DNA of 64,000 nucleotides, from NCBI GenBank assembly GCA_051745145.1, contig JBNJDT010000006.1, positions 2,545 through 66,544 of the forward strand, written 5' to 3'. The translations under genes and the position numbers were made by a program. Shown here piece by piece: positions 10,747-63,363 of this stretch. The DNA comes from Elusimicrobiota bacterium. Lineage in GTDB: Bacteria > CG03 > SLGR01 > JAGXOG01. The notes below the pieces were generated by a model, which saw only the letters and a list, made by a program, of their open reading frames with translations, was not told where the DNA came from and did no database searches. Positions within the stretch are counted from its first letter, which is position 1; every line of letters begins with the position of its first letter.

Positions 10747-10804
10747 TAATATACTCCTTATCTTTTGATTATCTACTCTATCTTATTTATTTTATTCCCG
10801 TCAT

Positions 10805-11368: not shown

Positions 11369-11424
11369 TTTATTTTAAATACTGCCTTAAATTTCTCTAT
11401 CGCTTTCCCGATTTCTTTCTCTTT

Positions 11425-12921
11425 TTACTTTTTCGGAAATAGGGATTTCCCTTTACTTACATTATCGAATTTTAATTTTATATTCCATCTTAAGTTTTCC
11501 TGGCGGGATATATTCTGGATCCCCATCTGCCGGCGCATCTTTTGGCTGGTTTCCGGCATAAAAGGATATATCTGCTGGGCAACAACTCTCAATATATTAA
11601 ATAAATTTGTAAGCACCTCATTTAACCGGTCCGTACTTTTTTCCCTGTTTAAAATCCAGGGTTTTTCCTCTTCTATATATGAGTTACCTTTCTTTATTAT
11701 TTTCCATATATTTTTTAAGATCTTGTCGAATTTTAATTCCTCATAATATTTTTTATTCATTATGACTATATCTTCCACCATAACATCAAATCCGTCCGGC
11801 TGCCCGGGACGAAACTGGGGGGTATATTTTTCAATCATTCCTAAAACTCTACTCAACAGGTTACCCAGTTCGTTTGCAAGATCTGATTCGTATCTATTTT
11901 TAAACTGCTCCTGAGAAAAATTGCCGTCCATCCCGAAAGTAACCTGCCTCAGGAGGAAATATCTAAAAGAATCGACATTCCACTTTTCTATAACATCCAG
12001 GGGTGCTACAACATTCCCCAGTGATTTACTCATCTTTTCACCAGTTATCGTCCACCAGCCGTGGGCAAAAATCTTCCGGGGCAATTTTAAATCCAAAGCC
12101 ATGAGCATAGTAGACCAGTATACCGAATGCGTGGTCAAAATATCTTTGCCTATTAAATGACAGGACGCCGGCCACCAGGTTATATCCTTCGGAGCAATAT
12201 ATTCCGTTGCTGAATAATAATTAATAAGAGCGTCAAACCAGACATAAGTGACATATTCATTATCAAAAGGGATAGTGATACCCCAGTTCAGACGGCTTTT
12301 CGGACGGGAGATACAAAGATCGTCAAGCTCATTGTTTTTTAAAAAACCGAGTACCTCATTTCTTCTCATTTCTGGCATAATGTAATCTGGATTATCTTCA
12401 ATATAATTTATTAATTTTGTCTGGTATTCAGACATTAAAAAGAAATAGTTTTCTTCCTCTATTCTTTCAACTTCCCGGCCGCATTCCGGACATTTTCCGT
12501 CCTTTAAATCTTTTTTCTTCCAGAACCTCTCGTCCGGAACACAGTACCACCCAGAATAAGAACGTTTTTCTATTTTTCCTTTTTTATAAAGTTCCTGCAA
12601 AAATTTCTGAACTATTTTTTTATGCTGTGAATCTGTTGTTCTTATAAAACCATCATTGGAAATGTTGAGTTTTTCCCATAAATTTTTAAACCGCTTCACC
12701 ATCTTATCCGTATGTTCTTTGGGTGTATTTCCGCTTTTTGCCGCTGCCTTTTCAATCTTCTGGCCGTGCTCGTCAGTCCCGGTTAAAAAGAAAACATCTT
12801 CACCGCGACTGCGGTAATACCTGGCCAGAACATCTCCGGCGACTTGAGTATAGGCATGCCCTATATGAGGATCATCATTGACATAATACAATGGAGTTGT
12901 AATATATTTTGTATTTTTCAT
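11425..12921 (-). CDS. metG: Methionine--tRNA ligase (short form, no C-terminal tRNA-binding domain)
   Basis: YYVNDDPHIGH, GTDEHGQK, YVWFDAL, KMSKS. Confidence 0.97.
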   Translation of the reverse strand: MKNTKYITTPLYYVNDDPHIGHAYTQVAGDVLARYYRSRGEDVFFLTGTDEHGQKIEKAAAKSGNTPKEHTDKMVKRFKNLWEKLNISNDGFIRTTDSQHKKIVQKFLQELYKKGKIEKRSYSGWYCVPDERFWKKKDLKDGKCPECGREVERIEEENYFFLMSEYQTKLINYIEDNPDYIMPEMRRNEVLGFLKNNELDDLCISRPKSRLNWGITIPFDNEYVTYVWFDALINYYSATEYIAPKDITWWPASCHLIGKDILTTHSVYWSTMLMALDLKLPRKIFAHGWWTITGEKMSKSLGNVVAPLDVIEKWNVDSFRYFLLRQVTFGMDGNFSQEQFKNRYESDLANELGNLLSRVLGMIEKYTPQFRPGQPDGFDVMVEDIVIMNKKYYEELKFDKILKNIWKIIKKGNSYIEEEKPWILNREKSTDRLNEVLTNLFNILRVVAQQIYPFMPETSQKMRRQMGIQNISRQENLRWNIKLKFDNVSKGKSLFPKK

Positions 12922-18248: not shown

Positions 18249-19214
18249 TTAAAAATTGACAGTAAACATTAAAGTATGCTCACTGTTCATCGCCTGGGCA
18301 ATGCCCATTCCATAATCAAATTTAAAACGGCTGTACTTTACTCCCGCTCCCCAGGTAAAATTTTTTATCTCATAATTAAACCGGTATCCGGACCGGAGAA
18401 AAAACATATCTCGGTATATATATTCGAATCCCGTATTTATCCTTATTATTTCACTTCCAAAATTATAAGTTGAATCCAGACTGATAAGAGAAGCATGCTC
18501 TTCATTAAAAATAGCAGGATAACTCACTCCCCCTTTTATTAAAGTGGGTAAAGGATCAGTAGCCCCTTCTTTTGTATAACCTACCCCCTTTCCCATATTT
18601 AATACCGACATACCCGCTCTTATTCCCGGAGAAAATATTCTTCCGTATACATTTTTGTTTCCCGTTTTGAAAAATGGGGTGTCCCATAAAAATCCCCCGT
18701 CAATCGATAAAGCAGCAGTTTCATAAGTTTCCAGTAAAGTTGAAGTATAATATCTTACTTTTAACCCCCCGTACATTTTCGGAGAAATTTTTGCTCCGTA
18801 GCCAGCTGAATAAACCATATCCTCCTGGGTTATAAAACTCTCTTCGTGCAAATCTTCGTAGCGACCGGCTGTATCATCTATGGTTATCTTTCCCCCAACA
18901 TAGCCCAGTGTGTCAATAGCAATACTGCCCGGCCCTACATTTAAAGCTCCTCCCGCATATCCCACCACCGAATCCAAAAAAGCCTCGTAGAAAACAGCAG
19001 AAACTGCATTTTTCTTTAAAGTTCCAAGCTGCGCCGGATTTAACCCCGTTGCGGTATAATCTCCCATAAAAGAGACCCCGCTCTCTCCGAGTGCATTTAC
19101 CCGGGGGGAGGGACAGAATTTTAATATCGGCGCCCCGGTACTTCCGTTTGAATAAAGGGGCTGTAAATTTAAAATAAATACCGGGATAAAAAAAAGGATT
19201 TTTCTGAAAAACAT
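18249..19214 (-). CDS. PorV/PorQ (UPF0164)-family outer-membrane beta-barrel
   Basis: Signal peptide; N-terminal GAPILKFCPSPRVNALGE...NPAQLG; LRSGYRF, FTWGAG, FDYG strands; C-terminal Phe (TVNF). Confidence 0.78.
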   Translation of the reverse strand: MFFRKILFFIPVFILNLQPLYSNGSTGAPILKFCPSPRVNALGESGVSFMGDYTATGLNPAQLGTLKKNAVSAVFYEAFLDSVVGYAGGALNVGPGSIAIDTLGYVGGKITIDDTAGRYEDLHEESFITQEDMVYSAGYGAKISPKMYGGLKVRYYTSTLLETYETAALSIDGGFLWDTPFFKTGNKNVYGRIFSPGIRAGMSVLNMGKGVGYTKEGATDPLPTLIKGGVSYPAIFNEEHASLISLDSTYNFGSEIIRINTGFEYIYRDMFFLRSGYRFNYEIKNFTWGAGVKYSRFKFDYGMGIAQAMNSEHTLMFTVNF

Positions 19215-32027: not shown

Positions 32028-32591
32028 TTATTTATTTTCGTTAATTAAAGACAAAGCTTCGCTTCTGGTCCGGGCGTCTTTTAAAAATATTCCCTTCATA
32101 GCTGAAGTTACAACTTTAGAACCGGCTTTTTTTATTCCTCTCATAACCATGCAAAGATGCTGGGCTTCAATTATAACCATCGCTCCCCTGGGCTTTATAT
32201 TTTCCATCATCGATTCTGCTATAGTTTCAGTAAGTCTCTCCTGCAGCTGAAGTTTTTTAGAGACTGCTTCAACCAATCGGGCAATTTTTGATAACCCGGT
32301 TACATTGCCATCTTTTGGAATATAAGCCACATGTGCTTTACCTACAAAAGGAAGAAGATGGTGTTCACAAACAGAATGAAAAGATATATCTTTAACTAAA
32401 ATTATTTCCGAATATCCCTCTTCTTTAAAATAGACCGGCGGGGCCTTAGGAGACTCATCATACGCACTGAATATTTCAGTACACATTCTGGCCACCCTAT
32501 CCGGGGTTTCCTTTAAGCCGGGTCTGGACGGATCTTCGCCGATACCTTCCAGGAAATTTCTAACTGCTTTCTTTATCTTTTTCTTGTTCAT
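32028..32591 (-). CDS. folE: GTP cyclohydrolase I
   Basis: [37 protein letters not shown]. Confidence 0.97.
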
Positions 32592-34566
32592 TGGAATTAT
32601 CTTTTACCTGTGCTTCCTTTTTTTTCTCCTTATTTTTACCTTTCTCTGCCTTTTCACTCTTATCAGTACTGTTCTTTTTATCTTTAGATTTTTTATTTTT
32701 ATCTGACTTTTCTCTATCGGATTTTTCTTCTTTTTCTTCCTTGTTATTGTCAGGGGCCAAACCCACTATTCTTTTAAGTTCATCGGATTCAATTATCTCT
32801 TTCTCTATCAGTTCTTCGGCCAACTTACGCAAACTGTCCTGATTATCGGTTAAAATTTTCCGCGCCTTTTTAAGACATTTATCAATTATATTTTTTACCC
32901 CTTTGTCAATTAGCTGGGCTGTCTCCTCGGAATATTCTCTGCCCTGGGCCAAATCCTTACCCAAAAAGACTTTCTCCTTGTCTTTATCGTATGTCAAAGG
33001 CCCCAATTCATCACTCATACCGTATTCGGTGACTAATTTATAGGCCATTTCGGTAACCTGCCGGAGATCATTCTGGGCCCCTGTTGTCTTTTCATTGAAT
33101 ATTAACTGCTCTGCAATCCTCCCTCCCAGCATTACAGTCATCTTATCAGTTATCTCGACTTCGGAGGTAAGATGCTTATCTTCCAGGGGAAGTTGCAGGG
33201 TATACCCTAAAGCCGGGCCTCTAGAAAGTATGGAAACTTTATGGACCGGATCCGCATTTTCCAGATGTAAAGCTACTAAAGCGTGACCGGCTTCGTGATA
33301 GGCTATTTTTTCTTTTTCTTCATCAGAGATTACTCTGGATTTTTTCTGAGGACCGGCAATAACTCTGTCTATAGCTTCTTCAATATGGTGCATCGTGACC
33401 TTATCGGCTTCTTCTCTCCCGGCCAGCAGGGCACCTTCATTTATTATATTTGCTATATCACTGCCCACAAACCCCGGAGTTCTTCTTGAAAGGACATCAT
33501 AATCAATATCATCATCCATTTTCACATCTTTTGCATGGAGCTGAAATATTTCCTTGCGTTCATTTATATTGGGGCGGGGTACTCCTATATGCCGGTCAAA
33601 CCTGCCTTTTCTCAAGAGAGCGGAATCTAAAACATCCGGACGATTTGTAGCTCCTATGAGTATAACTCCTTCTCTTGAATCAAACCCGTCCAGTTCTTTT
33701 AATATCTGGTTAAGGGTCTGTTCCCTTTCATCATGTCCGCCGCCCAGTCCGGAAAAACGGGATCTGCCTACAGCATCCAGTTCATCAATAAATATTATAC
33801 AGGGGGAATTTTTGCGCCCTCTTTCAAAAAGGTCTCTTATCCGGGATGCCCCGACTCCCACAAACATCTCTACAAATTCACTTCCGGAAGCTGAAAAGAA
33901 CGGTACATCCGCCTCGCCGGCTATAGCTTTTGTAAGAAGAGTTTTACCGGTGCCCGGCGCTCCATAGAGTAAAACTCCTTTAGGTATATCGGCTCCCAGA
34001 CGGGTAAATTTTTTAGGATTTCTTAAATACTCGACTATCTCCTGCAGTTCTTCTTTAATCTCTTCCAGGCCGGCAACGTTGTCAAACGTTATATTTTTTT
34101 CTTTCTTTTTTACATGCATTTTGGCCTTGGATTTTCCGAATTTCAAAGCGTTTTTGCCGCCGGAACGCATCTGATTCATTATTACAATCCAGATAACTAT
34201 CAATAGAAGAATGGGCCCGAAATTAAACAGGGCCATCTGCAGCCAGCCGCTGGATATGTCTCCTTTAAATTCCACTCCCGCTTCCCGCAGATCTTTTACA
34301 AGTTCGGTATCCTCTACTACAGTTGTTTTAAACTGTACTTCTTCTCCGGTAGTAGAAGATAAAAAAGTACCGGTAATTTCCTCTTCAGAAATTTCAACCT
34401 GCTGCAGCCTGCCCGCATCCAGTTTGTCTCTAAACTCACTGTAAGCTATCTCTTCTACTTCTTTTTGATTGCCCAGGTATCCGGTTAATAAAATAGCTCC
34501 CAGTATTAAAACTATCCAGAACGAAAACCCTTTAAAAAATTCTTGTTTCTTTTTATTTTTACTCAT
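32560..34566 (-). CDS. ftsH: ATP-dependent zinc metalloprotease FtsH
   Basis: Two TMs, [33 protein letters not shown]. Confidence 0.98.
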
Positions 34567-43770: not shown

Positions 43771-45921
43771 ATGCCTAACTTAGCAGGAGCTTTTATCGGG
43801 GGGATGATAACTACCTTATTTATCTTATTATTTCGTGTAGTATATACTATATCTGGGATTCCTATGGTCCATATTCCAGTAGTATTTGCCCTGTTTTTTA
43901 TAGAACTTTTTGGTGGTTTTATACTATTTAAAAAATTTCATCCTTATTTTGACAAGTTAAGAATCTTTTATTTTGCTTCTACTGTTTACTCCATTTATAT
44001 TCCTCTATTCTTAGTACTGTTTATAATCGAAAAACCACTATTGGGGTTTACTTTTTATCACTCCCTTCCCGGGTATGCTGTATATTTTTTCCCTCTTTTC
44101 CTTATGCTTCCCCTCGCCTTGGCTGCGGGAGTAATTTTAAATTACATTATTAAACAAAATAATTACACTATCCTGTCATTCATTATTGGGAGTATATTTA
44201 TAGTACTGATTGATATAGTTTTTCTTCATTCTCTGCCCCTTCTCTATTTAGCCCTAACTGGATCAATATTAGGTTTTATTATGTTGTCTTTAAACTCTCC
44301 TGAAACAGCTCCCAAATATTTTTTCGGTTTTACGGCAATCTTATATTTATTTATAGTATTCAGTCCTATTACAAAAACCGTCCCCGACATAATTAATTCT
44401 TTTACTCGGGATCCTGATATTGAATTTATAGATTCGGTCATTACTCCGTACGGTGAATTAAATTTATTTAAGGAAGCTCAGGATTATTTTACTACAATTA
44501 ATCATACCAAATTATCGACTTATCCGGACACAAAAAATTCTCAGGAGTTCGTACATGCTACTTTACCGCATTATCCATGGGCTGAAAAAGTACTTGTAAT
44601 AGGTGGAAATAATACTATCATTTCAGAAATTTTAAAATATCCGGATATAAAAAGCATACACTGGACTTCGCCGGTCCCCGAGAATTTCAATCTAATCTCT
44701 AAAAATTTATCTTCCAGCCTTGAAGCCACAAAAACACTTCGCCTTCGATATATTAAGAATTCTGAGGCTCGTTTACTGATAAAGAAACTAAAAAACGAAA
44801 ATAGTTTTGATGTTGTATTCATTGCCCTTCCTGATCCCACTAATATTTTTTTTAATAGATTTTATACCCAGGAATTTTTTGAAAAACTAAAAACTACCAT
44901 GTCAAATAATTCTATAATTTCTCTTTCGCTGCAAACCAGTAAAACCAGTACAAAAATGTATACAAAAAAATTAGCTGGCTCTACCTTTAAAACTTTAAAA
45001 GAGAGTTTCCCCCATACCCTGGAGATGTATGATAAAAAAACTTATATTATAGCCTCTCATAATAGAACCTTTGCAACATCTTTTGCAGCTCTCTACCAAT
45101 TTTTAAACACACTGGACAATATGCCAGAATTTGTTACCCCTGCCTTTTTAAGATACATGTTAAGCACGCAAAAAGAGGCCAAAAAATTTCTACACTCAGA
45201 TACAGTTACTTTTAATACAGACCATACTCCGGCTTCTCTACAATATTCGTTTTCCCAATTTGTATTATTTTCAAACTTACTGCCAAATTCTTTAATTATA
45301 TATATGGAATATATGGATTTAGTTTATCTATATTTTTTTACTTTTATATTTATTTTTCTTTTATTTATTAAGAGTAAGAAAGATAAAAATATCATCTCCA
45401 GAATCGACAATATCTTAATTATGAAAACTTTTAATACAGGAGTATTCTTATATATTTTAATAATTATAACTCAAACTATATACGGTGAAATTTTTTCCCA
45501 TATTTCAATAATTACGGCCGGCTTATTAGCGGGCGCTATACTAAGTTTCTTCCTGTTAAAAAAACAGAAAAAATACCCGGCCTACTCGAAGCTAAAAATT
45601 TGTTCTTTAATTACAGGTGTGCTCTTAATTTTAATAACTATTTTATTTAAAACTCTTCTTTCTGATTTCGGCATAGTTACAATAATTCTAATATCTTTAA
45701 TTGGAGGAATTTTATCGGGCAGTAATTTTACTATTATAAACGAAATTTACAGAAATTCAGAACAACAAGTTACCCCCCAACACATTAGTTTTATTTTAAC
45801 GGGAAGTCTACTTCTTGCATGTCTTGCGGCAGTATTTATAATTCCATTTATTGATATAATTTGGGTACTAACGGCTCTAGGTATTATAAGTTTTAGCGAA
45901 ATTATTATTTTAAAAGCTTAA
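43771..45921 (+). CDS. Membrane protein with a central spermidine-synthase-like domain (fused MFS-like/SpeE family), degenerate
   Basis: TM bundles flank TPYGEL...QEFVH...KVLVIGG...ALPDP...NRFYTQEFF. Confidence 0.72.
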   Translation: MPNLAGAFIGGMITTLFILLFRVVYTISGIPMVHIPVVFALFFIELFGGFILFKKFHPYFDKLRIFYFASTVYSIYIPLFLVLFIIEKPLLGFTFYHSLPGYAVYFFPLFLMLPLALAAGVILNYIIKQNNYTILSFIIGSIFIVLIDIVFLHSLPLLYLALTGSILGFIMLSLNSPETAPKYFFGFTAILYLFIVFSPITKTVPDIINSFTRDPDIEFIDSVITPYGELNLFKEAQDYFTTINHTKLSTYPDTKNSQEFVHATLPHYPWAEKVLVIGGNNTIISEILKYPDIKSIHWTSPVPENFNLISKNLSSSLEATKTLRLRYIKNSEARLLIKKLKNENSFDVVFIALPDPTNIFFNRFYTQEFFEKLKTTMSNNSIISLSLQTSKTSTKMYTKKLAGSTFKTLKESFPHTLEMYDKKTYIIASHNRTFATSFAALYQFLNTLDNMPEFVTPAFLRYMLSTQKEAKKFLHSDTVTFNTDHTPASLQYSFSQFVLFSNLLPNSLIIYMEYMDLVYLYFFTFIFIFLLFIKSKKDKNIISRIDNILIMKTFNTGVFLYILIIITQTIYGEIFSHISIITAGLLAGAILSFFLLKKQKKYPAYSKLKICSLITGVLLILITILFKTLLSDFGIVTIILISLIGGILSGSNFTIINEIYRNSEQQVTPQHISFILTGSLLLACLAAVFIIPFIDIIWVLTALGIISFSEIIILKA

Positions 45922-52110: not shown

Positions 52111-53628
52111 TTAGTTTTCAAAAAGTTTTTCAGTTCTTTCTATCTCATTTATAATAGCACTGTCAAGTTTATTATTATTTACTGCGGGCTTAAAATTTTC
52201 ATCCACGTGCTGAGGAATATTATTAACATATCTGGTATCCAGTTCATATTTTCTATCACTGTATTTTGCGCCTTCCACACCCCGGGCCTTTATTTCAAAT
52301 AAATTTACCTCTACTCCTTTTTTGACTATATCATCTATAGTATTTTTCATTTCTTGATCGGAATCAAGATTATTGTATACCCCAACCATTTTACAGCCAT
52401 AAAATTTCTCCAGCTGATTTGCCAATTTATCTAATATATATTCAGGAGCTGTAGTAAAAAAAGCACATTTTTTATTTTTAAGGCTCTCTGTTTCTCCTAC
52501 AATTTCCGGTATGAAGCGAGTATTAAAAATCCGGGAGTCTGAAACTCTCTTTTTTATTATGCCGGCTACCTGCTTTACACGATCCGGTTTGACGGTTTCC
52601 GGCTGGCAGTTAGCTATGATAAAAAGTCGCGCTTTTTCCAGTCCCGGAAAATCTTCCAATAAATCCAGGGGAACATCCGCTGGAATAAAGAAGATAATAT
52701 TATCTACAGCTACCGGGGGGTGTTCACCGCCGCTACCCTCATGTATTGTTAAATTAGCCTCACTGCTGTTTGCTTTTTCTATACCCTTATCGGCATTGGA
52801 AACTACAAACTCGTTAAAATATCCACCACCGGCCCGGCGGCACCCTATCATGGAAAGATAGGGAACCTTCTTATCCTTTTTTTCCCATTCGTCTAAATAT
52901 TTAGAAAGTATCAAAGCATCTTCAAATACGTCCGAAGCACCGTGTAGCCCAAAATCAACAAGCTTTTCCAGATACTCTTCTTTAAATCGGGAAGTAAGTA
53001 TATCATCTATTGTTATTTCAGAAAGAGGTTTCTCTTTACTTCTCTTATGAATTTCTATTAACGGGGGATCCGGCGGTCCGCCCCGAGAATGAGTTATTAC
53101 TACCGGTTTCCATGGGGTATTGCCCCCTTTAAGCCCCGCTACAAGATTACCTATATATGAACCGAAGGATGTCTTTCCAACCCTTTTATTTGTAGCATAA
53201 AGTCCCAACGAGGGATTAGAATGACGCATTTTTACCCGGTATTCATTAAAAACTGTGCCCCCGGCTATATATTTAGCTTCATAAGCGGAAGCTATCAGAG
53301 CGTATTTAACTGTTAATTTTCTAAATATCTGGGGGGCTCCGGATAGCTGAACAACTGTTTTAATATCACTGTTTTCACTTAAAATTTTCTTTATCCCTTT
53401 TTCCGGAACACAGTTATTATCGGCATCCAGTGGAAAATACACTTCCACATTAAATTCATCCTTAAATATATTCTTAAATTTATCTTTCGACTCCAATTTT
53501 TCTGTACCCCCGATCCAGACCAAAGCCGATACTTTCACATTAAACCGTTTACACAATTCCTTTATTGAAAATATAGAATTATTGGGTTTATGCGTTCCGT
53601 CTATCAAAAAAAGTGCTTTATTCTTCAT
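52111..53628 (-). CDS. cpgS: Cyclic 2,3-diphosphoglycerate synthetase-like protein
   Basis: LIDGxH, GGTEK, KRVGKT, RGGPP, GASDxxEDA, GCRRAGGG, EGSG..PP, FFTTAP...YGC, EIKA, NIP; same operon as 2PGK. Confidence 0.82.
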   Translation of the reverse strand: MKNKALFLIDGTHKPNNSIFSIKELCKRFNVKVSALVWIGGTEKLESKDKFKNIFKDEFNVEVYFPLDADNNCVPEKGIKKILSENSDIKTVVQLSGAPQIFRKLTVKYALIASAYEAKYIAGGTVFNEYRVKMRHSNPSLGLYATNKRVGKTSFGSYIGNLVAGLKGGNTPWKPVVITHSRGGPPDPPLIEIHKRSKEKPLSEITIDDILTSRFKEEYLEKLVDFGLHGASDVFEDALILSKYLDEWEKKDKKVPYLSMIGCRRAGGGYFNEFVVSNADKGIEKANSSEANLTIHEGSGGEHPPVAVDNIIFFIPADVPLDLLEDFPGLEKARLFIIANCQPETVKPDRVKQVAGIIKKRVSDSRIFNTRFIPEIVGETESLKNKKCAFFTTAPEYILDKLANQLEKFYGCKMVGVYNNLDSDQEMKNTIDDIVKKGVEVNLFEIKARGVEGAKYSDRKYELDTRYVNNIPQHVDENFKPAVNNNKLDSAIINEIERTEKLFEN

Positions 53629-55264
53629 CTATAAGAATCTCTCCTTTCAATTTATCCTTTATCTCTTTGCGTTTTTCCGGTTCCATAGCATAAAGTACGG
53701 TAGGGGCCACATCCTTAAGACAGCCCTCTTTTTTTATTTTAACATCTTTTCCTTCCTGATCTTTAATTAAAAACGGGACCGGGTTCTGAGTGTGAAATGT
53801 AGAAGGAGTGTCATCATCAGTCAACAGGTCCTCCAAGTTACCGTGATCCGCTGTAATAAAAACTACGGTATTATTTTTCTCAGCTTCTTCAGTTATCTTT
53901 TTTAAAGAATCGTCAATCTTTTCTATGGCCTTAATTGCGGCCTCTTTGTTGGCGGTATGTCCTACCATATCCGGATTAGCTATATTTACAATCATAAAAA
54001 ATTTAGGTTTACTTTTCTTTAATATTTCTACTATCTTATCAGTTAATCTGGGTAACTCTATCTTTGGAAATTTTTCATAGGGATTCATTTTAAATCCCGG
54101 CTCCCCTTTTTTCTCTTCGTATTCCGCCATATAATTTTCCATTTCCTCGGGCAGAGGAACAACTACTCGATGTTCATGCTCAAAAGGTTCTTCTCTGCTG
54201 CCCCCGGAAAGCAAAACTACTGCCTGTTTTTTGTCAACTCCGCTTACCCGGTATTGAGTATAACCGAATTTTTCAAGCATACTCCCCAAAGAATCCGCCT
54301 GCTGTAAATCTTCATAAGCCACAGGACAAGAAATATCCTTGTAGTATTCCACCAGTGCTCCGAAATCAAGAGAACTATAATCCAGATCTTTTTCTTTCAG
54401 TTTTTTAAAATCTTTATCACCGACTATTTTTTTGAGTTCTTCTTCTGATTTTAAAAAAGCTTTCATCAACATGCTGGCCCGGTCTTTGCGAAAATTCCAG
54501 TGGAAAAGAGCATCTCCTTCCGAAACCCCTTTATAATCCCCGAGTACCCTTACATTTATATACTGATCGGTGATCTTTTCTTCGTAATCTTTTTTAAATG
54601 CTCTGAATATATTATCTTCTCTTGTGCCGATACCTTCTATTATAGCCCGGTAAACTTTTATAGTTTTGTACCAGGAATCGGATGAGCGGTTCATCGAAAT
54701 ATCTCGGCCGCTGACAGTAGCTAGTTTAATCTGAGTACCATCAGATGCCATCTCCTCGGCTTTCATTTGCAGGTCTTCCGCAAAACGCACTCCGGAAAAA
54801 GGCGGGGTACCCCGTCCGTCGGAAAAAAAATGAATATATATTTTTTCGACACCTTTCTGAACTGCTCTTCTCATTATTGCATAAAGATGTCTGATATCAG
54901 AATGTTCCCGGTTTGTAGAAACCAATCCCATAAGATGCAGGGCTTTTTTACGGGCAGCAACTTTTTCTATAATATCATCAATAACTTTATTTTTAATTAC
55001 GCCGTCTTTTATATCCTTAGCTACTCTTACCATGGGATGTACATAATCCACCCCGCTCATAACTTCATGCCCGACTGCCGTTGAGCCCATAGCGTCTTCG
55101 GTCATACCTACCCGGGGACCTACAGCAACAAGCTTTTCGTAATTTAACTTATCCAGAAAAGGTGTATCGGCAAATTTTACCGGATTGTCGTCCTCATCTT
55201 TGCTTAACCCCAATCCGTCTACTATAACCAAAAGACCCTTGCCGGAATTTTTAACCGGTTTCAT
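53618..55264 (-). CDS. gpmI: 2,3-bisphosphoglycerate-independent phosphoglycerate mutase
   Basis: DGLG, MGSTAVGHE, DGRGTPP, SGR...M, NFRKDRA, ANPDMVGHT, ADHGN, HT.NPVP. Confidence 0.92.
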   Translation of the reverse strand: MKPVKNSGKGLLVIVDGLGLSKDEDDNPVKFADTPFLDKLNYEKLVAVGPRVGMTEDAMGSTAVGHEVMSGVDYVHPMVRVAKDIKDGVIKNKVIDDIIEKVAARKKALHLMGLVSTNREHSDIRHLYAIMRRAVQKGVEKIYIHFFSDGRGTPPFSGVRFAEDLQMKAEEMASDGTQIKLATVSGRDISMNRSSDSWYKTIKVYRAIIEGIGTREDNIFRAFKKDYEEKITDQYINVRVLGDYKGVSEGDALFHWNFRKDRASMLMKAFLKSEEELKKIVGDKDFKKLKEKDLDYSSLDFGALVEYYKDISCPVAYEDLQQADSLGSMLEKFGYTQYRVSGVDKKQAVVLLSGGSREEPFEHEHRVVVPLPEEMENYMAEYEEKKGEPGFKMNPYEKFPKIELPRLTDKIVEILKKSKPKFFMIVNIANPDMVGHTANKEAAIKAIEKIDDSLKKITEEAEKNNTVVFITADHGNLEDLLTDDDTPSTFHTQNPVPFLIKDQEGKDVKIKKEGCLKDVAPTVLYAMEPEKRKEIKDKLKGEILIDEE

Positions 55265-55267
55265 TAA

Positions 55268-55696
55268 TCACTCTTTGCTCTTTTTAAAATATTCTAATAT
55301 TGCTTTGTGAGAATCAGAAATACTGATTATTCCCGTCATCTTACCATTTTTCATAACTGGTACTCTGTGAATATGTTTTTCCACCATTAAATTAAAAACA
55401 GCGAGAACATCCGTATCCTCATCAACTGTAACAACTTCTTCAGTCATAATTCCTTCAACCCAGTTAAACTTCCCCCGCTTCCTCTCTATTTCTTCAATAC
55501 TTACATGGACCTTAATTAAGTCAGAAACCGCATTTATTATATCTTTAAGGGACACCATCCCTATTAAATTATTATCGTCGTCTACAACCGGAGCTCCGGT
55601 TATCTTGTTCTCCTGCAGAATATTTATCATCTTTCTTATAGTGTAATATTTTTTAACTGTTATGACTTCTGGGGTCATTATTTGTGATGCTTTCAT
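55268..55696 (-). CDS. Stand-alone tandem CBS-domain protein
   Basis: IMTPEVITV, ITGAPVVD, IMTEEVVTV, IHRVPV. Confidence 0.93.
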   Translation of the reverse strand: MKASQIMTPEVITVKKYYTIRKMINILQENKITGAPVVDDDNNLIGMVSLKDIINAVSDLIKVHVSIEEIERKRGKFNWVEGIMTEEVVTVDEDTDVLAVFNLMVEKHIHRVPVMKNGKMTGIISISDSHKAILEYFKKSKE

Positions 55697-55741
55697 TCAT
55701 TTCCTCCGTAAAATTTATTTTACAATTTAATTACTGTCTTA

Positions 55742-56644
55742 TTAATTATTTACAGATATCTTATCTATAATATTATTCACAACACTTTTTGTGGTTTTAA
55801 TTGAGTTTATATTGTTAAAATACGGGTAATCCCTCTTTTTCGCCCCCTTAATTATATAGTCTTGAATCATTCGAATAGCTTCTATATTTTTAAGATATTT
55901 TTCCGCGGCCCGGTCTTCCGTAGAACGTCCACGCATATGAAACCTGTTCTTGTGTTCTTCCTCATCTTCAATATATACAAAAGCTTTTACTATATTTGCC
56001 CCGGGGAATTCATTCTCATCAATAAGTTCGGGTAAAATATGAACGCCGTTTATTATAAGAGAAGTTTTTTCAACTATACTCCTGCGAATTATACTTTTTA
56101 TTCCAGCATTGACTCTAAGGGCCTGTTCCCTGAAAGCTATTATTTTCTGGTTTTTAGATTCCTTTACAGGAACCCAAAATTTTTCAGAAGCCAGATAAGA
56201 AGAGGTGTGTATCATCGGTAAGATATCGTTAGAAAAAAGAGCTCGCATAATTTCTCTCACTATATCTGTGGTAAACATAGATGTGATATCCAGTCTCTGA
56301 GCTAATTCAACCGATACTGTGCTTTTACCCGAACCCGTTGAACCTCCCAGAAGAATTATAAGCGGCTTCTCCAGTCCCATGATCTTTCTAAATTTTAAAT
56401 ACCTTTGAGAAGTAACTTTATCAAGCTCATTTTCCAATTCTTTGGCTACTATCTGGCGAAGTTTATCTCTGTCTATCTTAGTCCGCCCTTCCTGGTTTAA
56501 TCTATTTCTTACCCTCCGGGCTATATTGTATGCTTTATTAAACTTTATACCAATAGTTGTTAAAGAACTGGCCAAAACATGTATGGAAAATGGAAGCTTT
56601 AAATCTTCGCCAACTATTTCAATTAAATTATTTGCCTTTGCCAC
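55742..56644 (-). CDS. pgk2: 2-phosphoglycerate kinase with N-terminal ATP-cone-like domain
   Basis: LPFSxxVLASSL; LIILLGGSTGSGKST; TDIVREIMR; HTSSY; IINGVHILP; EEHKNRF; IRMIQDY. Confidence 0.88.
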   Translation of the reverse strand: MAKANNLIEIVGEDLKLPFSIHVLASSLTTIGIKFNKAYNIARRVRNRLNQEGRTKIDRDKLRQIVAKELENELDKVTSQRYLKFRKIMGLEKPLIILLGGSTGSGKSTVSVELAQRLDITSMFTTDIVREIMRALFSNDILPMIHTSSYLASEKFWVPVKESKNQKIIAFREQALRVNAGIKSIIRRSIVEKTSLIINGVHILPELIDENEFPGANIVKAFVYIEDEEEHKNRFHMRGRSTEDRAAEKYLKNIEAIRMIQDYIIKGAKKRDYPYFNNINSIKTTKSVVNNIIDKISVNN

Positions 56645-57453
56645 TATCTTATCCTTAACCCCGCATAACCTACAACTCTATTATCATCCCCGGTAACCCG
56701 GGCACTTGTATTGTAATGTATAAATTCACATTCATCGGCCCCTAATTCAATAGAAGCTTTTATGGTTACGGCAACCGGCGCTGCCCCGCACATGGATATT
56801 CTGTTATCCCTTACAACGTCCAGTAAACCCGTATAATCCAATTCTTTTATTTTATCTATAGCCAAATTATCACATTTTTGAGCTTCTTCTTTAGTAACAA
56901 AATGAGACATATCACTTGAAGCAACTATTAATACATCCCCTCCGGTAGATTCAACAGCACCGGCAATCGCTTTTCCTATATCTTCTATACAGTCAATATT
57001 GCTATTGGATATTCCCAGGCATATCGGGACAAATTCAATGTTCGGATTTTTATATAATAAAAAGGGTAACTGTACTTCTATAGAATGTTCAGACAGATGG
57101 GCTTTTGAATCAGAAGCTAAAAAACTGCTTTTTGAAGCAATATCTGAAGCTAAATTTTCTGCTATATCCACTTTTCCCGGGGGAAGTCTCCAGGATCCCT
57201 TTTTCATAATACTGGCCGGCTTTCCCTGCCCGGTATGGTTGGGCCCTATTATAACTACCCGGTCCGGAACGCGTATGCCAGAATAAGTCAACCCGGCTAC
57301 TTTTCCCGAAAATATATAACCGGCATGAGGTACGATAACGCCTTGTACTTTTTTTTCTCCCTGGCCCGGGACATCCATATATTTTTTAACCGTATTATTT
57401 AACTCATTGCTATCGCTGGGGTAAAATTTACCCGCCACCGCAGGTTCTCTCAC
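56644..57453 (-). CDS. amrB: AmmeMemoRadiSam system protein B (MEMO1 family)
   Basis: REPAVAGKFYP, PHAGYIFSG, GPNHTG, EHSIEVQLPF, ASSDMSH, SMCG, VVGYA. Confidence 0.95.
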   Translation of the reverse strand: MREPAVAGKFYPSDSNELNNTVKKYMDVPGQGEKKVQGVIVPHAGYIFSGKVAGLTYSGIRVPDRVVIIGPNHTGQGKPASIMKKGSWRLPPGKVDIAENLASDIASKSSFLASDSKAHLSEHSIEVQLPFLLYKNPNIEFVPICLGISNSNIDCIEDIGKAIAGAVESTGGDVLIVASSDMSHFVTKEEAQKCDNLAIDKIKELDYTGLLDVVRDNRISMCGAAPVAVTIKASIELGADECEFIHYNTSARVTGDDNRVVGYAGLRIR

Positions 57454-57615: not shown

Positions 57616-57650
57616 AAAAAAAGCGGGCCGATTTAACAGCCCGCTTTTCT
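57616..57650 (-). terminator. Rho-independent terminator after hsp20
   Basis: Minus strand AAAGCGGGC-N10-GCCCGCTTT followed by a T run. Confidence 0.85.
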
Positions 57651-57675
57651 TTCCAGAGGAATTTAAGCTACTTCT

Positions 57676-58116
57676 TTACTTTATATCAATCTTCTTTTGT
57701 TTTTTTGCCTCAATCTTTTTCTTGGGCAAAGTTACCTTGAGCACGCCTTTCTCATAAGAAGCCTCGGCTTCGGATTCATCCACGGCAGAGGGCAATCTTA
57801 TACTTCTGGCGAAACTCATATAATTCCGCTCGCTGAAGTAACAGTCTTCTTCTTCTTTTTTTTCTTCTTCTTTCCTGGAGCCCTGAATGGTGAGAATATC
57901 ATCATCAAGCGAAATATCTATATCCTCTTTATCCAGTCCGGGCATATCGGCTTCGGCCACTATATTGTTATCTTCTTCATATATATCCACAGCCGGAGGA
58001 CGGTTGCCCTCCTCCATATTTACCAGATCCGAAATATCGGTATCAAAGAAACTATCCCACAGACTACCTTGTCTTCTTAATCTTCTAAAAGGATCCCAAT
58101 TTGTTAAATCAGCCAT
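57676..58116 (-). CDS. Hsp20/alpha-crystallin small heat-shock protein
   Basis: PAVDIYE, ADMPGLDKEDI, ERNYMSFARSIRLP, ASYEKGVLKVTLPK. Confidence 0.96.
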   Translation of the reverse strand: MADLTNWDPFRRLRRQGSLWDSFFDTDISDLVNMEEGNRPPAVDIYEEDNNIVAEADMPGLDKEDIDISLDDDILTIQGSRKEEEKKEEEDCYFSERNYMSFARSIRLPSAVDESEAEASYEKGVLKVTLPKKKIEAKKQKKIDIK

Positions 58117-58162
58117 TTTAAAACACCTCCTTTATTATTTCGTTTTTTACTTTCTTTCACTA

Positions 58163-58192
58163 TTTAGATGAATTAAAACAAAAATCGTTTCA
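58163..58192 (-). promoter_or_regulatory. Putative ECF-sigma promoter TGAAACG-N15-CATCTAAA (hsp20)
   Basis: Identical boxes recur upstream of clpB and of the ECF sigma gene. Confidence 0.75.
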
Positions 58193-58196
58193 CCAT

Positions 58197-60770
58197 TTAA
58201 ACCGCTTTTTCAAAAGCAAATTCTTCGGTCTTACGATGGGTATCAATTTTAACCGTATCCCCTTCCTTAAAATCCCCTTCTAATATTTTCATTGACAGAG
58301 GATTTACAATTTTTCTCTGAATAGCCCTCTTAAGGGGCCGGGCCCCGTAGTTGGGATCGTATCCTTCCTCGGCCAGTTGCTTTTTAGCATCTTCAGTAAG
58401 TTCTATTGTAATATCTTTCTGCCGGGCGTATTCCCTTAAATTATCCACCTGAATATCTACTATATTTTTTAGATCGCTCTCATTTAAACTGTTAAAAAAT
58501 ACTATATCATCCAACCGGTTTAAAAATTCCGGTTTGAAAGTTGCCCGGAGCTCATCCATTATCTTTTCCTCGCCCGTATCCTCTATAATATGACGGCTTC
58601 CCAAATTGGAAGTCATTATTACAATAGTATTTTTAAAATTAACCGTCCTACCCTGGCCATCGGTTAACCGGCCGTCGTCAAGTAACTGCAACAATATATT
58701 AAACACATCCCGGTGAGCCTTTTCTATTTCGTCAAACAATATTACTGAATACGGTCTTCTCCGGACTGTTTCAGTCAGCTGCCCCCCCTCGTCAAAACCC
58801 ACGTATCCGGGAGGGGAGCCTATCAATCTGGATACCGAATGCTTTTCCATATATTCGCTCATATCTATACGGACCATGGCCTCTTCATCATCAAACAAAA
58901 ACTCAGCCAGAGTTCTGGCAAGTTCTGTTTTCCCCACACCGGTCGGTCCAACAAATATAAAAGATCCAACGGGCCTATCGGGGTCCTGAAGCCCGGCCCG
59001 GGAGCTTCGCACAGCATCGGAGACCCGTTTTACAGCTTTGTCCTGGCCTACCACCCTTTCTTTAATCTTACTTTCCATATTAATAAGCTTCTGTTTCTCA
59101 CTCTCCAACATTTTAGATACGGGAATCCCGGTCCATGAAGACACAACTTCCGCAATTTCATCCTCATCAACTTCTTCTTTTAAAATGCGTTTGTCGGACT
59201 GCAGCTTTTCAAGCTTCTCTGCCTTGTTTTCAAGTTTATTTTTTAAATCATTTATAACGCCGTATTTCAGTTCGGCGGCCCTCTCAAGATCCGTCTCTCT
59301 TTCCGCCTTTTCCTGTTCAATTTTAGCTTTTTCTATTTTGTCTTTTATATCCCTTATTTTTACTATTAGATCTCTCTCCTGTTTCCAGTGACCTTTGAGC
59401 TCATCACTTTTTTCGCGTAAATTAGCTAAATTTTTCTTAAGTTTACTTAATTTTTCCCGGCTGGCTTCATCTTCTTCTTTTTTAAGTGCTCTCTTTTCTA
59501 TTTCCAGTTTACGTATTTTACGCTCTACTTCATCTATCTCTGCAGGCATACTCTCTATTTCTATATTTAATCTTGAAGCAGCCTCATCTATTAAATCGAT
59601 GGCCTTGTCCGGTAAAAACCTGTCCGTTATATACCTGTTAGACAGGGTGGCAGCCGCAATTATTGCCGAATCTTTTATCTCAACCCCGTGGTATACTTCA
59701 TATCTGTCTTTAAGCCCCCTTAATATGGCTATGGTATTTTGAACGTCCGGTTCTTTTATAAGTACTTTCTGAAACCTTCTTTCCAGGGCTGCATCCTGTT
59801 CTATATGTTCCCGGTATTCATCTAAAGTTGTAGCCCCTATACATCTTAACTCCCCCCGGGCCAGCGCAGGTTTTAACATATTAGAAGCATCAACCGAACC
59901 TTCAGAGCTTCCCGCCCCTACAACTGTATGCAACTCATCAATAAAAAGTATTATTCTGCCGTCAGAACTTTTTATCTCTTTTAAAACTGCTTTTAATCTT
60001 TCCTCAAATTCCCCCCGGAATTTAGCTCCGGCAAGCAGACTGCCAAGGTCAAGTGCTATAACCCGTTTATTTTCAAGGGATTTCGGTACATCTTTTTCAG
60101 TTATTCTCTTAGCCAGCCCTTCAGCTATGGCCGTCTTCCCGGTACCCGGTTCTCCGATAAGTACGGGATTATTCTTTTTACGACGGGAGAGAACTTGAAT
60201 TACTCTTCTTATTTCATCATCTCTGCCTATTACCGGGTCCAGTTTGCCCTTAGAGGCCAGGTTAGTTAAATCTCTGGCGTATTTTTCCAGTACTTTATAT
60301 TTTGATTCCGGATCCTGGTCAGTTACCCGCTGCTCCCCCCGGATATCCTTAAGTCCTTCCAGTATATCTTCTATTTTAATATTATAATTTTCTCTTATCT
60401 CTTTTATTTTTCCGGTATTTTCCTCCAGTATAGCTAGCAATAAATGTTCCACGGAGACATATTCATCTTTAAATTTCTCTGATTTTTTAAAGGAATTATT
60501 TATTACGCCGTTAAGTCTTTGAGATAAATACACTTCTCCCCCGCCGGAAATACGGGGTCTGTTTTCCAAATCTTTTATAAGTGTCTTTTTTACACTCGCA
60601 GGGGAGACTTCCAGTTTTTCTAAGATAGAACCTGCTATTCCATTATCATCTTCTAATAAAGCCAAAAATAAATGTTCTACATCCAACTGTTGATGTTCCC
60701 ATTTTCGGGCAAAACTCCTCATCTTTTCTATAGCTTTTCTTGCTTTAATAGTTAATTTATCTAATTGCAT
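58197..60770 (-). CDS. clpB: Chaperone ClpB
   Basis: Clp-N domain, two AAA modules ([16 protein letters not shown]), long coiled-coil middle domain; no ClpP-binding IGF/LGF loop recognised. Confidence 0.97.
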
Positions 60771-60824
60771 TTTTATCTCCTTTTTATGTGTTTTTTAAAA
60801 TTTTTATTTAGCGATTTACTAGTT

Positions 60825-60854
60825 TTTAGATGTGTATAAATATAAAACGTTTCA
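60825..60854 (-). promoter_or_regulatory. Putative ECF-sigma promoter TGAAACG-N15-CATCTAAA (clpB)
   Basis: Same boxes and spacing as the hsp20 site. Confidence 0.75.
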
Positions 60855-60926
60855 AAATAACTGAAAATTATATTCAGGTATCTCTTAATTTAGGTTGGTC
60901 TTTACAAAAAAAGAAGTGCTTCCCGG

Positions 60927-61157
60927 TTAAAACTCTATTTTAATTTTTAAAGATTTGTAAATTTTTCTGCGGGTTTTATCGGGGATCTTTTTATCTTCAG
61001 TTTCCCGTAAGTAGCGTACTGTTCTTCTAAAGGATCTGTATATTAGCTTACAACGGGAGTTTTCCCGAAGTTTTTTCTCAAATTCCCGACACATCTCATC
61101 GGAGAGTTCGCGATCATAATATTCTGAAAGTAGCTGGCAAAATTCTTTATAATCCAT
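60927..61157 (-). CDS. Soluble anti-sigma factor, degenerate zf-HC2/ZAS type
   Basis: LLSEYYDRELS pattern; overlaps the ECF sigma stop; canonical HxxxCxxC reads KLRENSRC. Confidence 0.75.
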   Translation of the reverse strand: MDYKEFCQLLSEYYDRELSDEMCREFEKKLRENSRCKLIYRSFRRTVRYLRETEDKKIPDKTRRKIYKSLKIKIEF

Positions 61158-61764
61158 TTTTTACCTCAGACTTTTTAAAATATTCATCTAACTTTTCCCG
61201 GACTTTTAATCTTGCCCTGTGAGCTCTGGATTTAAATGCGGGTACGGAAATATTCATTATTCTGGCACCCTCTTTATTGGAAAACCCCTGAATATCTTTA
61301 AGAATAATAGCCGGACGATATTTATCGGGCAATTGTTGTATAGCTTTGTCTATTACTTCCCCTATCTCTTTCTTTTCTACTTTATTTAACGGATCTGATG
61401 TCCAATTATCTTCATATTGCCTTTTAAAGTTATCGGAATTAGAAGAATTAAAAGGTTTATCCAGAGAAATAGAGTTTTTTCTCTTTTCTTTTCTCTTTTT
61501 CATCAATGCTGTATTAACAGTAACCCTGTAAAGCCAGGTAGAAAATTTTGAATCACCTCTAAAAGTATCCAGTTTTTCCAAAACTTTTTTAAAAGTTTCC
61601 TGAACCACATCACCAGCTTCCTCCTCATCAGAGGTAATTTTTAAAGCTATATTATATACCTTTCTTTCAAATTTTTTTACTAAAGCCCCTCGAGCGTTTT
61701 TATTGCCGGCTTTGGCCTTTTCAATTAAAACTTCGGTATCAGTATCTTTATTCAGTTCCTGCAA
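61147..61764 (-). CDS. ECF RNA polymerase sigma factor
   Basis: DVVQETF, FRGDSKFSTWLYRVTVN (region 2); LPDKYRPAIILKDIQGFSNKE...FKSRAHRAR (region 4). Confidence 0.95.
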   Translation of the reverse strand: MQELNKDTDTEVLIEKAKAGNKNARGALVKKFERKVYNIALKITSDEEEAGDVVQETFKKVLEKLDTFRGDSKFSTWLYRVTVNTALMKKRKEKRKNSISLDKPFNSSNSDNFKRQYEDNWTSDPLNKVEKKEIGEVIDKAIQQLPDKYRPAIILKDIQGFSNKEGARIMNISVPAFKSRAHRARLKVREKLDEYFKKSEVKNGL

Positions 61765-61766
61765 TA

Positions 61767-61797
61767 TTTAGATGCCTTATTAATAACTTTCGTTTCA
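61767..61797 (-). promoter_or_regulatory. Putative autoregulatory ECF promoter TGAAACG-N16-CATCTAAA
   Basis: -35 box overlaps the maoC stop codon; -10 box ends 2 nt before the TTG start of the sigma gene. Confidence 0.7.
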
Positions 61798-62244
61798 TTC
61801 TGGTTTTTTACTTTTTTGGGGAGCAATTACTTTTGCTTTTCCTCTCACTACTATTTTCTCCGCCTCATTTGTCACTTTATATTTAAAAATACACATATTT
61901 AATCTTTCTTTTTTCTTAACCAGTTCTATGGTAGCTGTAACTGTTTCGCCGATATAGGCCGGCTGGCTGAATTTCGCGGACATCTCCCGGGCAATTGTTC
62001 CCAACCCCGGCAGTCTAGTTCCCAGCATTCCGGAAATTATCCCGGTAAGCAGTACTCCGTGTACAATACGGGATCCGAACTGAGACTCTTTAGCATACTC
62101 ATCTTCCATATGAAGCGGATTGTAATCTCCGGTTGCCCGGGCAAAAGCCTCCACTTTATCCTCATTTAATTCAACCTCCACACTTTCTGTATCCCCCACA
62201 GATATTTGATCAATTGTTTTACTTTTTTGCATAAAAATCTCCAA
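61795..62244 (-). CDS. MaoC/PhaJ-like (R)-enoyl-CoA hydratase
   Basis: FARATGDYNPLHMED, RIVHGVL, LPGLGTI, FSQPAYIGET. Confidence 0.9.
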   Translation of the reverse strand: MEIFMQKSKTIDQISVGDTESVEVELNEDKVEAFARATGDYNPLHMEDEYAKESQFGSRIVHGVLLTGIISGMLGTRLPGLGTIAREMSAKFSQPAYIGETVTATIELVKKKERLNMCIFKYKVTNEAEKIVVRGKAKVIAPQKSKKPE

Positions 62245-63171: not shown

Positions 63172-63363
63172 TTATAACTTTTTTACGTTTTCCGCTTTTA
63201 AACCTTTTTCTCCGTCAACTGAATCAAATTCTACCTGGTCACCTTCGTTTAAAGGTCCAAGTTCTATGTCATTTGCATGTACAAAATGATCTCCGCTTCC
63301 ATCTTCAGGTTCTATAAATCCATAATTCTTTCTGTCGTTAAAAAACTTTACTGTACCTTTCAC
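63172..63363 (-). CDS. Cold-shock protein
   Basis: GTVKFFN, KNYGFI (RNP1), HFVH (RNP2), KGLKAENV. Confidence 0.96.
   Translation of the reverse strand: MKGTVKFFNDRKNYGFIEPEDGSGDHFVHANDIELGPLNEGDQVEFDSVDGEKGLKAENVKKL

Follow-up and report, generated by a model that had tools for sequence, protein, structure and literature searches.

Control of clpB and other chaperone genes by extracytoplasmic function (ECF) sigma factors is established for the SigH-RshA pairs of Corynebacterium glutamicum and mycobacteria, and the SigH/SigR regulons include clpB, clpP, dnaJ and small heat-shock proteins (HSPs) (PMC3489674). Outside the actinobacteria, the Neisseria sigmaE promoters carry a -10 consensus CGTCTAAH with transcription starting at an A six nucleotides (nt) downstream, the TCTAA of which has been compared with TCAAA in Escherichia coli (PMC2893595), while Bacillus subtilis sigmaW, sigmaM, sigmaX and sigmaV read tgaAAC paired with CGTA or CGTC (PMC5758882). 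Here we analyse a stretch of 64,000 nt from an Elusimicrobiota bacterium (assembly GCA_051745145.1, contig JBNJDT010000006.1, positions 2,545 to 66,544; hereafter the window, with positions counted from its first letter), in which genes for an ECF sigma factor, a 76-residue (aa) anti-sigma factor, the disaggregase ClpB and an Hsp20 follow one another on the minus strand. We estimate at about 0.78 the probability that the linked sigma/anti-sigma pair drives clpB, hsp20 and its own operon through a shared bipartite promoter.

A predicted bipartite promoter before the sigma gene, clpB and hsp20

The preliminary description of this DNA, made by eye, had reported three identical pairs of boxes with spacers of 15, 15 and 16 nt, and an exact pattern search recovers precisely these: TGAAACG-N14..18-CATCTAAA has three matches in the 64 kb, on the minus strand only. 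The accompanying statement, that no other copy was seen and that well under one chance match is expected per window, also stands, since 100 dinucleotide-preserving shuffles gave 0 matches to the exact pattern and two relaxed cores, GAAAC-N15..19-CATCTA (0.10 expected in the 64-kb window) and TGAAAC-N15..19-ATCTAA (0.04 expected), returned the same three sites and no others. Scored by a position weight matrix derived from 11 sites of the window and its relatives, the three sites reached 22.9 bits and the next-best site 15.9. Beyond the three, seven sites in the window scored 12 or more against about eight in shuffles, and we therefore treat this tail as noise. The three-site motif lies far beyond chance.

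The box ends 54 nt before the start codon of clpB, 46 nt before that of hsp20 and 2 nt before that of the sigma gene. The predicted 5' untranslated region (UTR) of clpB, of about 48 nt, is unstructured and has a GGAG Shine-Dalgarno sequence. Two further genes of the window, encoding HtrA (5686-7224) and FtsH (32560-34566), are without a box, and none of the redox genes within the window carries one. At the sigma gene, the stop codon TGA of the preceding MaoC-like gene (61795-61797) supplies the first three bases of the -35 element TGAAACG; in the closest related locus, L001, the MaoC-like and sigma genes are 94 nt apart and the box is wholly intergenic, unlike in the window.

The -10 element, CATCTA, was not recognised in the preliminary description, yet comparison with published promoters shows it to be of a known type. 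The octamer CATCTAAA is one base off the Neisseria sigmaE consensus and contains the sigmaE TCTAA/TCAAA core, its CATC aligns in register with the B. subtilis CGTC/CGTA, and the -35 TGAAAC is the sigmaW/M/X consensus. The second C of CATC lies 20 nt from the C of AAC at clpB and hsp20, a spacing shared with the E. coli rpoE promoter, and 21 nt from it at the sigma gene. Because the GAAC-like -35, the -10 box and the spacing of about 20 nt all match published sigmaE-type elements, the window promoters can be assigned by their letters to the RpoE/SigW class, with no new type of -10. The furthest hsp20 RNA contig end but one (described below) falls 6 nt past the box, at A58157, as in Neisseria, where the starting A follows CGTCTAAH by 6 nt (PMC2893595).

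That the 30-mers are instead weak sigma-70 promoters or repressor operators seems hardly credible to us. TTGAAA upstream of clpB does resemble a sigma-70 -35 hexamer, and one 9/12 sigma-70-like site (60867-60839) overlaps the clpB box, but such sites occur at chance level (15 matches against 12.4 expected), TTGAAA and TCTAAA would stand 19 nt apart, and at hsp20 the hexamer reads GTGAAA. Being asymmetric and bipartite, with a fixed spacing of 15-16 nt and a fixed orientation, and standing 40-55 nt before start codons at clpB and hsp20, the motif has the build of a promoter rather than of a palindromic operator, and its conserved letters are those of the known ECF -35 (AAC) and -10 (xxTCTAA). 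A search for other regulators of heat-shock genes gave 0 matches to CIRCE or HAIR with up to 3 mismatches allowed, and 5 matches to the CtsR box against 2.9 expected, none near the locus. Rfam returned no RNA thermometer or leader above threshold, and the 5' UTRs of hsp20 and clpB have folding energies of 0 to -2.3 kcal/mol, which shuffles match.

The features of the locus are collected in Table 1. The gene assignments of the preliminary description (hsp20, clpB, ECF sigma and anti-sigma) proved correct by Pfam and NCBIfam profiles. The closest named relatives of the ClpB protein are from Elusimicrobiota metagenome-assembled genomes (MAGs), at 65-68% identity. The terminator after hsp20 folds at -28.9 kcal/mol (z -3.3), an energy matched by 0 of 200 shuffles; between the anti-sigma gene and clpB there is no convincing terminator, just a hairpin of 4 bp and 7 T in a row.

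Table 1. Promoters, genes and terminator of the sigma/anti-sigma-clpB-hsp20 locus, in window coordinates.
Feature	Position	Strand	Description
MaoC-like dehydratase gene	61795-62244	-	directly upstream of the sigma gene
Predicted promoter of the sigma/anti-sigma operon, ECF-type	61767-61797	-	-35 TGAAACG 61797-61791, N16, -10 CATCTAAA 61774-61767
ECF (group IV) sigma factor gene, RpoE/SigW-like	61147-61764	-	205 aa; Pfam Sigma70_r2 + Sigma70_r4_2; TTG start
Predicted cytoplasmic anti-sigma factor gene	60927-61157	-	76 aa, anti-sigma domain only; zf-HC2-like; 11-nt overlap with the sigma open reading frame
Predicted clpB promoter, ECF-type	60825-60854	-	TGAAACG-N15-CATCTAAA; canonical start site predicted near 60819
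clpB, AAA+ disaggregase gene	58197-60770	-	857 aa; TIGR03346 chaperone_ClpB 1310 bits, cutoff 1232
Predicted hsp20 promoter, ECF-type	58163-58192	-	TGAAACG-N15-CATCTAAA; canonical start site A58157, 6 nt past box
hsp20, small heat-shock protein gene	57676-58116	-	146 aa; alpha-crystallin domain, PF00011 E 6e-26
Intrinsic terminator of the hsp20 transcript	57616-57644	-	GCGGGC...GCCCGC hairpin, then 7 T

Recurrence of the boxes in related loci

We collected the gene contexts of relatives from look-ups of the contigs encoding them and from scans of genome and metagenome contig collections. The sigma factor is rare: its best relative is 78% identical, after which identity drops to about 50%, and among the matches listed the metagenome scan added a single close locus, L088. 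The box lies upstream of clpB in six of six related loci (among them L001/L008, L007, L175, L176 and L177), upstream of hsp20 in five further lineages (L001, L007, L088, L004/L006 and L017) and at the start of the sigma gene in at least nine lineages. A relaxed pattern found 10 matches in 3.85 Mb of unrelated ECF loci (2.6/Mb), or about 3e-4 per 120-nt upstream region, and with this background the recurrence of the motif at orthologous positions is not due to chance.

The closest of these loci (L001/L008, from the uncultured bacterium CAYZAK01, sigma 78% identical) has the sigma box TGAAACG-N16-CATATAAT, a clpB box ending in CATCTAAG and an hsp20 box ending in CATCTAAT. In L001 an insert of 4.9 kb (8120-12794), encoding an 815-aa spermine-synthase-like and two radical-SAM proteins, separates the anti-sigma gene from clpB; no box was found in the insert, and the clpB and hsp20 boxes are kept beyond it. 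The equivalent gap of the window is 60771-60926, and a 716-aa spermine-synthase-like gene stands elsewhere, at 43771-45921 on the opposite (plus) strand. The order sigma, anti-sigma, clpB, hsp20 is also kept in L007 (sigma 53%), with TGAATCG, TGAACCT and AGAATCC paired with CATCTAAA, CATCTAAC and CATCAAAT, respectively. L177, from an Elusimicrobia MAG, has the order sigma, anti-sigma, clpB (49%, 36% and 65% identical, respectively), with boxes before the sigma gene and clpB. In two Elusimicrobiota MAGs (L175 and L176, ClpB 68%) the clpB box is present with no sigma gene within 10 kb, and a box at such an unlinked clpB is what a regulon acting in trans predicts.

In other relatives hsp20, with a box, is found directly downstream of the sigma/anti-sigma pair: L088 (sigma 47%), L004/L006 (50%) and L017 (WOR-3, 37%), the last with TGAATCT-N15-AGTCTAAA. 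The box at the sigma start is also present in Ignavibacteriales (L012), Melioribacter (L014), L168 and, as variants, several Chloroflexota. One more relative, L170 (sigma 48%), has a strong box, TGAATCC-N15-CATCTAAT (5455-5484), downstream of a longer anti-sigma of 111 aa. It precedes small open reading frames (ORFs) unlike Hsp20 or ClpB and may mark a different member of the regulon.

These comparisons bear on which sigma factor reads the boxes. Another ECF sigma encoded elsewhere, with an overlapping RpoE/SigW-like specificity, could be responsible, the local one being a target or a bystander. Overlapping recognition is common in this class, as for B. subtilis sigmaM, sigmaW, sigmaX and sigmaV on CGTC promoters (PMC5758882), our view of the genome spans about 64 kb, and clpB is boxed in L175 and L176 with no sigma gene close by. 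Against this, the box at the sigma gene's own start in so many lineages is a classic signature of autoregulation, and the synteny of the sigma/anti-sigma pair with clpB or hsp20 recurs at 37-78% sigma identity. Moreover, the -35 variant is shared within each genome across the sigma, clpB and hsp20 sites: the window and L001 have GAAAC at each of their three sites, L007 has GAATC or GAACC, and GAATC occurs twice in L177 and also in L004. This covariation favours the linked sigma as the reader, and we judge a foreign one very unlikely. We infer that the local sigma factor reads the boxes and that the 76-aa protein would bind it.

The sigma factor itself has Sigma70_r2 (residues 28-95) and Sigma70_r4_2 (137-187) with no region 1.1 or 3, the domain content of an ECF sigma, and it passes the NCBIfam sigma70-ECF model TIGR02937 with 104 bits (cutoff 42.9). 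It falls below the equivalog cutoffs for RpoE (TIGR02939, 129.9 against 236.15) and SigW (TIGR02948, 121.1 against 243.1), below PRK09641 (136.8 against 209) and PRK11922 (145.9 against 204), and reaches 85.8 bits with SigH_actino (TIGR02947, cutoff 251.55), well under its RpoE/SigW-type scores. It is thus RpoE/SigW-like yet outside every curated equivalog family tested. The nearest solved structures are E. coli sigmaE (1or7), AlgU (6in7) and 8z6g, with E values of about 1e-25, followed by SigW at 3e-22. The region 4.2 residues aligned to the sigmaE -35 readers are K171, S172, H175 and R176, and under the sigmaE rule, by which K/R171, F/H175 and R176 fit C-31, A-33 and G-35 (PMC1540707), the K171, H175 and R176 equivalents would be compatible with recognition of G-N-A-N-C. 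We had also considered sigma position 174 as the determinant of GAAAC versus GAATC, and dropped it as inconsistent in L088.

Transcription in salt-lake metatranscriptomes

For expression we used Logan contigs from 12 salt-lake metatranscriptomes that contain the locus. In 11 of the 12 runs the 5' ends of the hsp20 contigs lie at 58157, 58148, 58147, 58145, 58137, 58133, 58127, 58109, 58080, 58078 and 58075, the furthest of them being exactly six nt past the box, and the 3' ends (57651-57707) fall just short of the terminator. hsp20 is the most abundant transcript of the locus in situ: its depth is 4-50 times that of clpB and the sigma gene in the four runs compared across the whole locus, with contig depths of 250-400 against 5-30 in X2 and X3. 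Within hsp20, a Glu/Lys-rich low-complexity stretch at 57845-57873, GAAGAAGAAAAAAAAGAAGAAGAAG, gives many separate 31-mer contigs of very high depth in several RNA and DNA runs; since such a stretch attracts these contigs, the depth in this bin is not specific to hsp20.

RNA contigs of the sigma gene reach 61752 at the furthest; across the 12 runs the stretch 61753-61840, towards the MaoC-like gene, stays unbridged, and the MaoC-like gene is silent in 10 of them. For clpB the furthest end is 60785, and 60786-60853 is covered in none of the 12 runs. In low-depth DNA assemblies, contigs run across each of the three promoters (X1 at 60577-60868 and 61702-61910, X14 at 58151-58345), so the breaks in the RNA contigs are not assembly artefacts. 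The junction between the sigma and anti-sigma genes is spanned by RNA contigs, for instance 61048-61196 and 60894-61214, and the two genes are hence co-transcribed.

Two features of individual runs should be mentioned. The RNA contigs of X3 and X4 end at the anti-sigma stop codon (60926-60927), where the X4 contig carries adapter, while other runs extend past it to 60894-60900 or 60854. A 368-nt contig of X5 over the sigma gene (61419-61572) has 15 differences from the window, each a G>A change when read on the plus strand (C>U in the mRNA), which could reflect a strain variant, deamination or editing-like damage; the other runs match the window.

Taken together, the core of the preliminary description, that the sigma/anti-sigma pair drives the disaggregase system, is supported though not proven by footprinting at 37-78% sigma identity, by the boxes at unlinked clpB genes, by the boundaries and steps in the RNA and by the lack of other operators. 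Several observations weigh against it. The motif scan covered 64 kb of the genome, and L088 and L017 are without a box upstream of their sigma genes. Residue S172 predicts G, not A, at -34 under the sigmaE rule (PMC1540707), a small mismatch. The RNA evidence consists of assembled contigs rather than reads, at low depth on clpB and the sigma gene, and one run, X4, reads through the hsp20 promoter to 58193. Furthermore, the predicted 5' UTR of clpB (60786-60818) is covered in no run, and the RNA contigs are therefore supportive for three transcription units and strong only for hsp20.

A further point against it concerns the start of the sigma gene. Its start codon follows the box by 2-3 nt in the window (TTG 61764), L001, L007, L012, L013, L014 and L170, abuts it in L011 and overlaps it in L177, L028 and L030, while in L168 and L004 the called ATG lies inside the spacer; overall, the start codon is at or near the box in at least 10 lineages. 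ECF transcription canonically starts 10 nt from the flipped C (PMC7776599), and the canonical start site of the sigma operon (about 61761) consequently falls within or beyond TTG 61764, the one canonical start codon. The annotated sigma starts look right, because the N-terminal lengths they predict match that of E. coli sigmaE. With the canonical start site inside the sigma ORF, a leaderless mRNA or another route is needed: either transcription would start 3-4 nt nearer the box and yield a leaderless mRNA (with a weak UUG here), or the sigma factor would be translated from other transcripts.

Directly downstream of hsp20 (53618-57453) are Memo-like, 300-aa P-loop, CBS-domain-like and 548-aa phosphoglycerate-mutase-like ORFs, of which Pfam confirmed Memo only. 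A cold-shock-domain gene with a long AT-rich upstream region (63172-63363) is found two genes upstream of the sigma operon, and L001 has two copies (3189-3380 and 5532-5723) in the equivalent neighbourhood; no ECF box is associated with these genes in the window or in L001. A weak match to PorV of type IX secretion (18249-19214, E 6e-7), with FG-GAP and PilX-like proteins next to it, points faintly to a cell-surface system of the FCB type, though the closest ClpB relatives are Elusimicrobiota; any placement of the window from these features is tentative.

The predicted anti-sigma factor, the likely signal and known counterparts

On its own the 76-aa protein scores 22.0 bits against zf-HC2, just under the cutoff of 22.2. 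A profile of nine orthologues (the 76-aa protein and eight others) picks out the RsiW anti-sigma domain (5wuq_C) at E 3e-7 and, weakly, RsrA at E 0.21, and the protein is without a transmembrane segment. In the window, K29, N33 and C36 replace the H-x3-C-x2-C of the zinc-binding anti-sigma (ZAS) motif, and there is no Cys at the position equivalent to RsrA C11; ZAS proteins have such a Cys some 26 residues ahead of the His. The motif is degenerate in the same way in L001 and as F/D/C in L007, which leaves one of the four canonical ligands in this clade, and the L177 protein has a shifted C-x4-C-x-C pattern. In the alignment of anti-sigmas the ZAS motif is intact in L088, L012, L014, L017 and L004, and L012 has the full RsrA/MseR-like set of ligands (Cys8, His34, Cys38 and Cys41). 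The loss of the His and the first Cys appears confined to the clpB-linked clade of the window, L001 and L007.

The ZAS-intact homologues, from Ignavibacteria, WOR-3, L088 and L004, adjoin genes for thioredoxin reductase, peroxiredoxin, OsmC or MsrA. This raises the question of whether the promoters, though real ECF promoters, respond to thiol-oxidative stress, with the chaperones placed inside a redox regulon as in SigR-RsrA or SigH-RshA. Complete RsrA/MseR-like ligands in L012, HxxxCxxC in L014, L017, L088 and L004, redox neighbours that also include rubrerythrin, and the actinobacterial SigH, which spans heat and disulfide stress (PMC3489674), would all fit such a signal. The degenerate motif in the window, L001 and L007 is evidence against a classic zinc/thiol switch here, and within the 64 kb the targets are limited to clpB, hsp20 and the pair's own operon, with no redox gene boxed. 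We consider the thiol signal unlikely.

Given chaperone targets and an anti-sigma that no longer has the zinc/thiol ligands of its redox-sensing relatives, we hold with moderate confidence that heat or unfolded-protein stress is the most likely trigger; heat shock as such we infer from the nature of the target genes. The best explanation of the locus is a self-contained module for proteotoxic stress. In this module the RpoE/SigW-like sigma factor would be held inactive by the 76-aa cytoplasmic anti-sigma, which is probably co-translated with it. Once the anti-sigma is inactivated, the sigma factor would bind core RNA polymerase and start transcription at three near-identical sigmaE-type promoters. 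The first, before its own operon, would provide positive feedback and at the same time resupply anti-sigma for the shut-off, while the second would drive clpB and the third hsp20, giving a small-HSP holdase together with the ClpB disaggregase as output.

How the signal would reach the anti-sigma is a matter of speculation. Rather than acting as a redox or proteolytic switch, the protein might sense unfolding directly, being held or competed for by small HSPs or ClpB, or being thermolabile itself, such that chaperone demand titrates it and frees the sigma factor. Such a circuit would parallel, with an ECF sigma, the feedback loops of sigma-32/DnaK or HspR/DnaK. We regard the idea as distinctly unlikely as it stands; in its favour are the loss of the zinc ligands specifically in the clpB-linked clade, the anti-sigma::Hsp20 fusion of L004-L006, and the position of hsp20 right behind the anti-sigma gene in three further lineages (L088, L017 and L007).

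The fusion is found in a GC-rich relative (sigma 50% identical) from three independent samples, as one ORF of 252 aa that joins a ZAS anti-sigma to an Hsp20 alpha-crystallin domain (L004:10617-11375, L006:1157-1915 and L005:5589-6347). An ECF box, AGAATCT-N15-CATCTAAA, is retained in its linker together with a Shine-Dalgarno sequence, AAGGAGGTG, and an ATG in frame from which free Hsp20 could start, and so both the fused and the free Hsp20 may be made. Genes for thioredoxin reductase and peroxiredoxin lie downstream of the fusion ORF.

For lineages with no cultured model, Elusimicrobiota-like bacteria in the first place and, through related modules, Ignavibacteriota, WOR-3 and Chloroflexota, the locus offers a testable wiring of the proteotoxic-stress response: one sigma factor, one 76-aa anti-sigma and a promoter of 30 bp that identifies its targets. 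Few ECF sigmas are known to control the ClpB/small-HSP disaggregase in place of RpoH, HrcA, CtsR or HspR, and the locus would be one more such case. Compact, with few targets and seemingly active in situ, it could serve as an orthogonal set of sigma, anti-sigma and promoter in synthetic biology. If a zinc-free anti-sigma did sense unfolded proteins directly, this would be a new mode of input for ECF signalling.

The preliminary description had implied that ECF control of ClpB and Hsp20 is novel, which goes too far given the precedents of SigH-RshA and of Leptospira LIC_12757. We found no literature on this system in Elusimicrobiota, and the text of the ECF re-classification paper does not mention Hsp20, ClpB or heat shock. 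New here are the lineage, the tight sigma/anti-sigma/clpB/hsp20 module, an anti-sigma that has lost its zinc site, a sigma start codon placed right against the box, and the anti-sigma::Hsp20 fusion in relatives.

In its build the locus resembles sigmaE-MseR of Neisseria meningitidis and Neisseria gonorrhoeae (NMB2144/NMB2145), where an RpoE-like ECF sigma has a very small cytoplasmic anti-sigma directly downstream, is autoregulated and has a tiny regulon, with a -10 that compares closely with CATCTAAA (PMC2893595). There, however, the target is msrAB and not chaperones, the -35 GTAAGGTT differs from that of the window, and MseR keeps the Cys4/His30/Cys34/Cys37 ZAS set that the window protein has lost. 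Among sequences of solved structure, E. coli sigmaE-RseA and B. subtilis sigmaW-RsiW come closest, and it is the RsiW domain that the anti-sigma profile matches; but RseA and RsiW are membrane proteins freed by regulated proteolysis on envelope stress, whereas here there is no transmembrane segment and the targets are cytoplasmic chaperones.

Other systems are comparable in their output. Promoters of the ECF12 family are not known to have an AAC -35, and the likeness to actinobacterial SigH-RshA and SigR-RsrA, which belong to that family, is one of function and not of family. These too pair an ECF sigma with a soluble anti-sigma, are autoregulated and respond to heat and/or disulfide stress (PMC3489674), but the ZAS motif of RshA and RsrA is intact and these proteins act as zinc/thiol switches, while the regulon seen in the window is dedicated to the disaggregase. 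In Leptospira interrogans, clpB is likewise transcribed from a heat-inducible sigmaE-type ECF promoter and the factor LIC_12757 is autoregulated (PMC6941012, PMC12155086); its partner, however, is a FecR-like transmembrane protein, clpB lies apart from its genes, and hsp20 has not been reported among its targets. Finally, RpoH (sigma-32) plays an analogous part, as an alternative sigma dedicated to switching on clpB and the small-HSP genes ibpAB under proteotoxic stress, but it is a group 3 sigma with another consensus and no anti-sigma partner, governed by chaperone titration, FtsH degradation and an mRNA thermometer.

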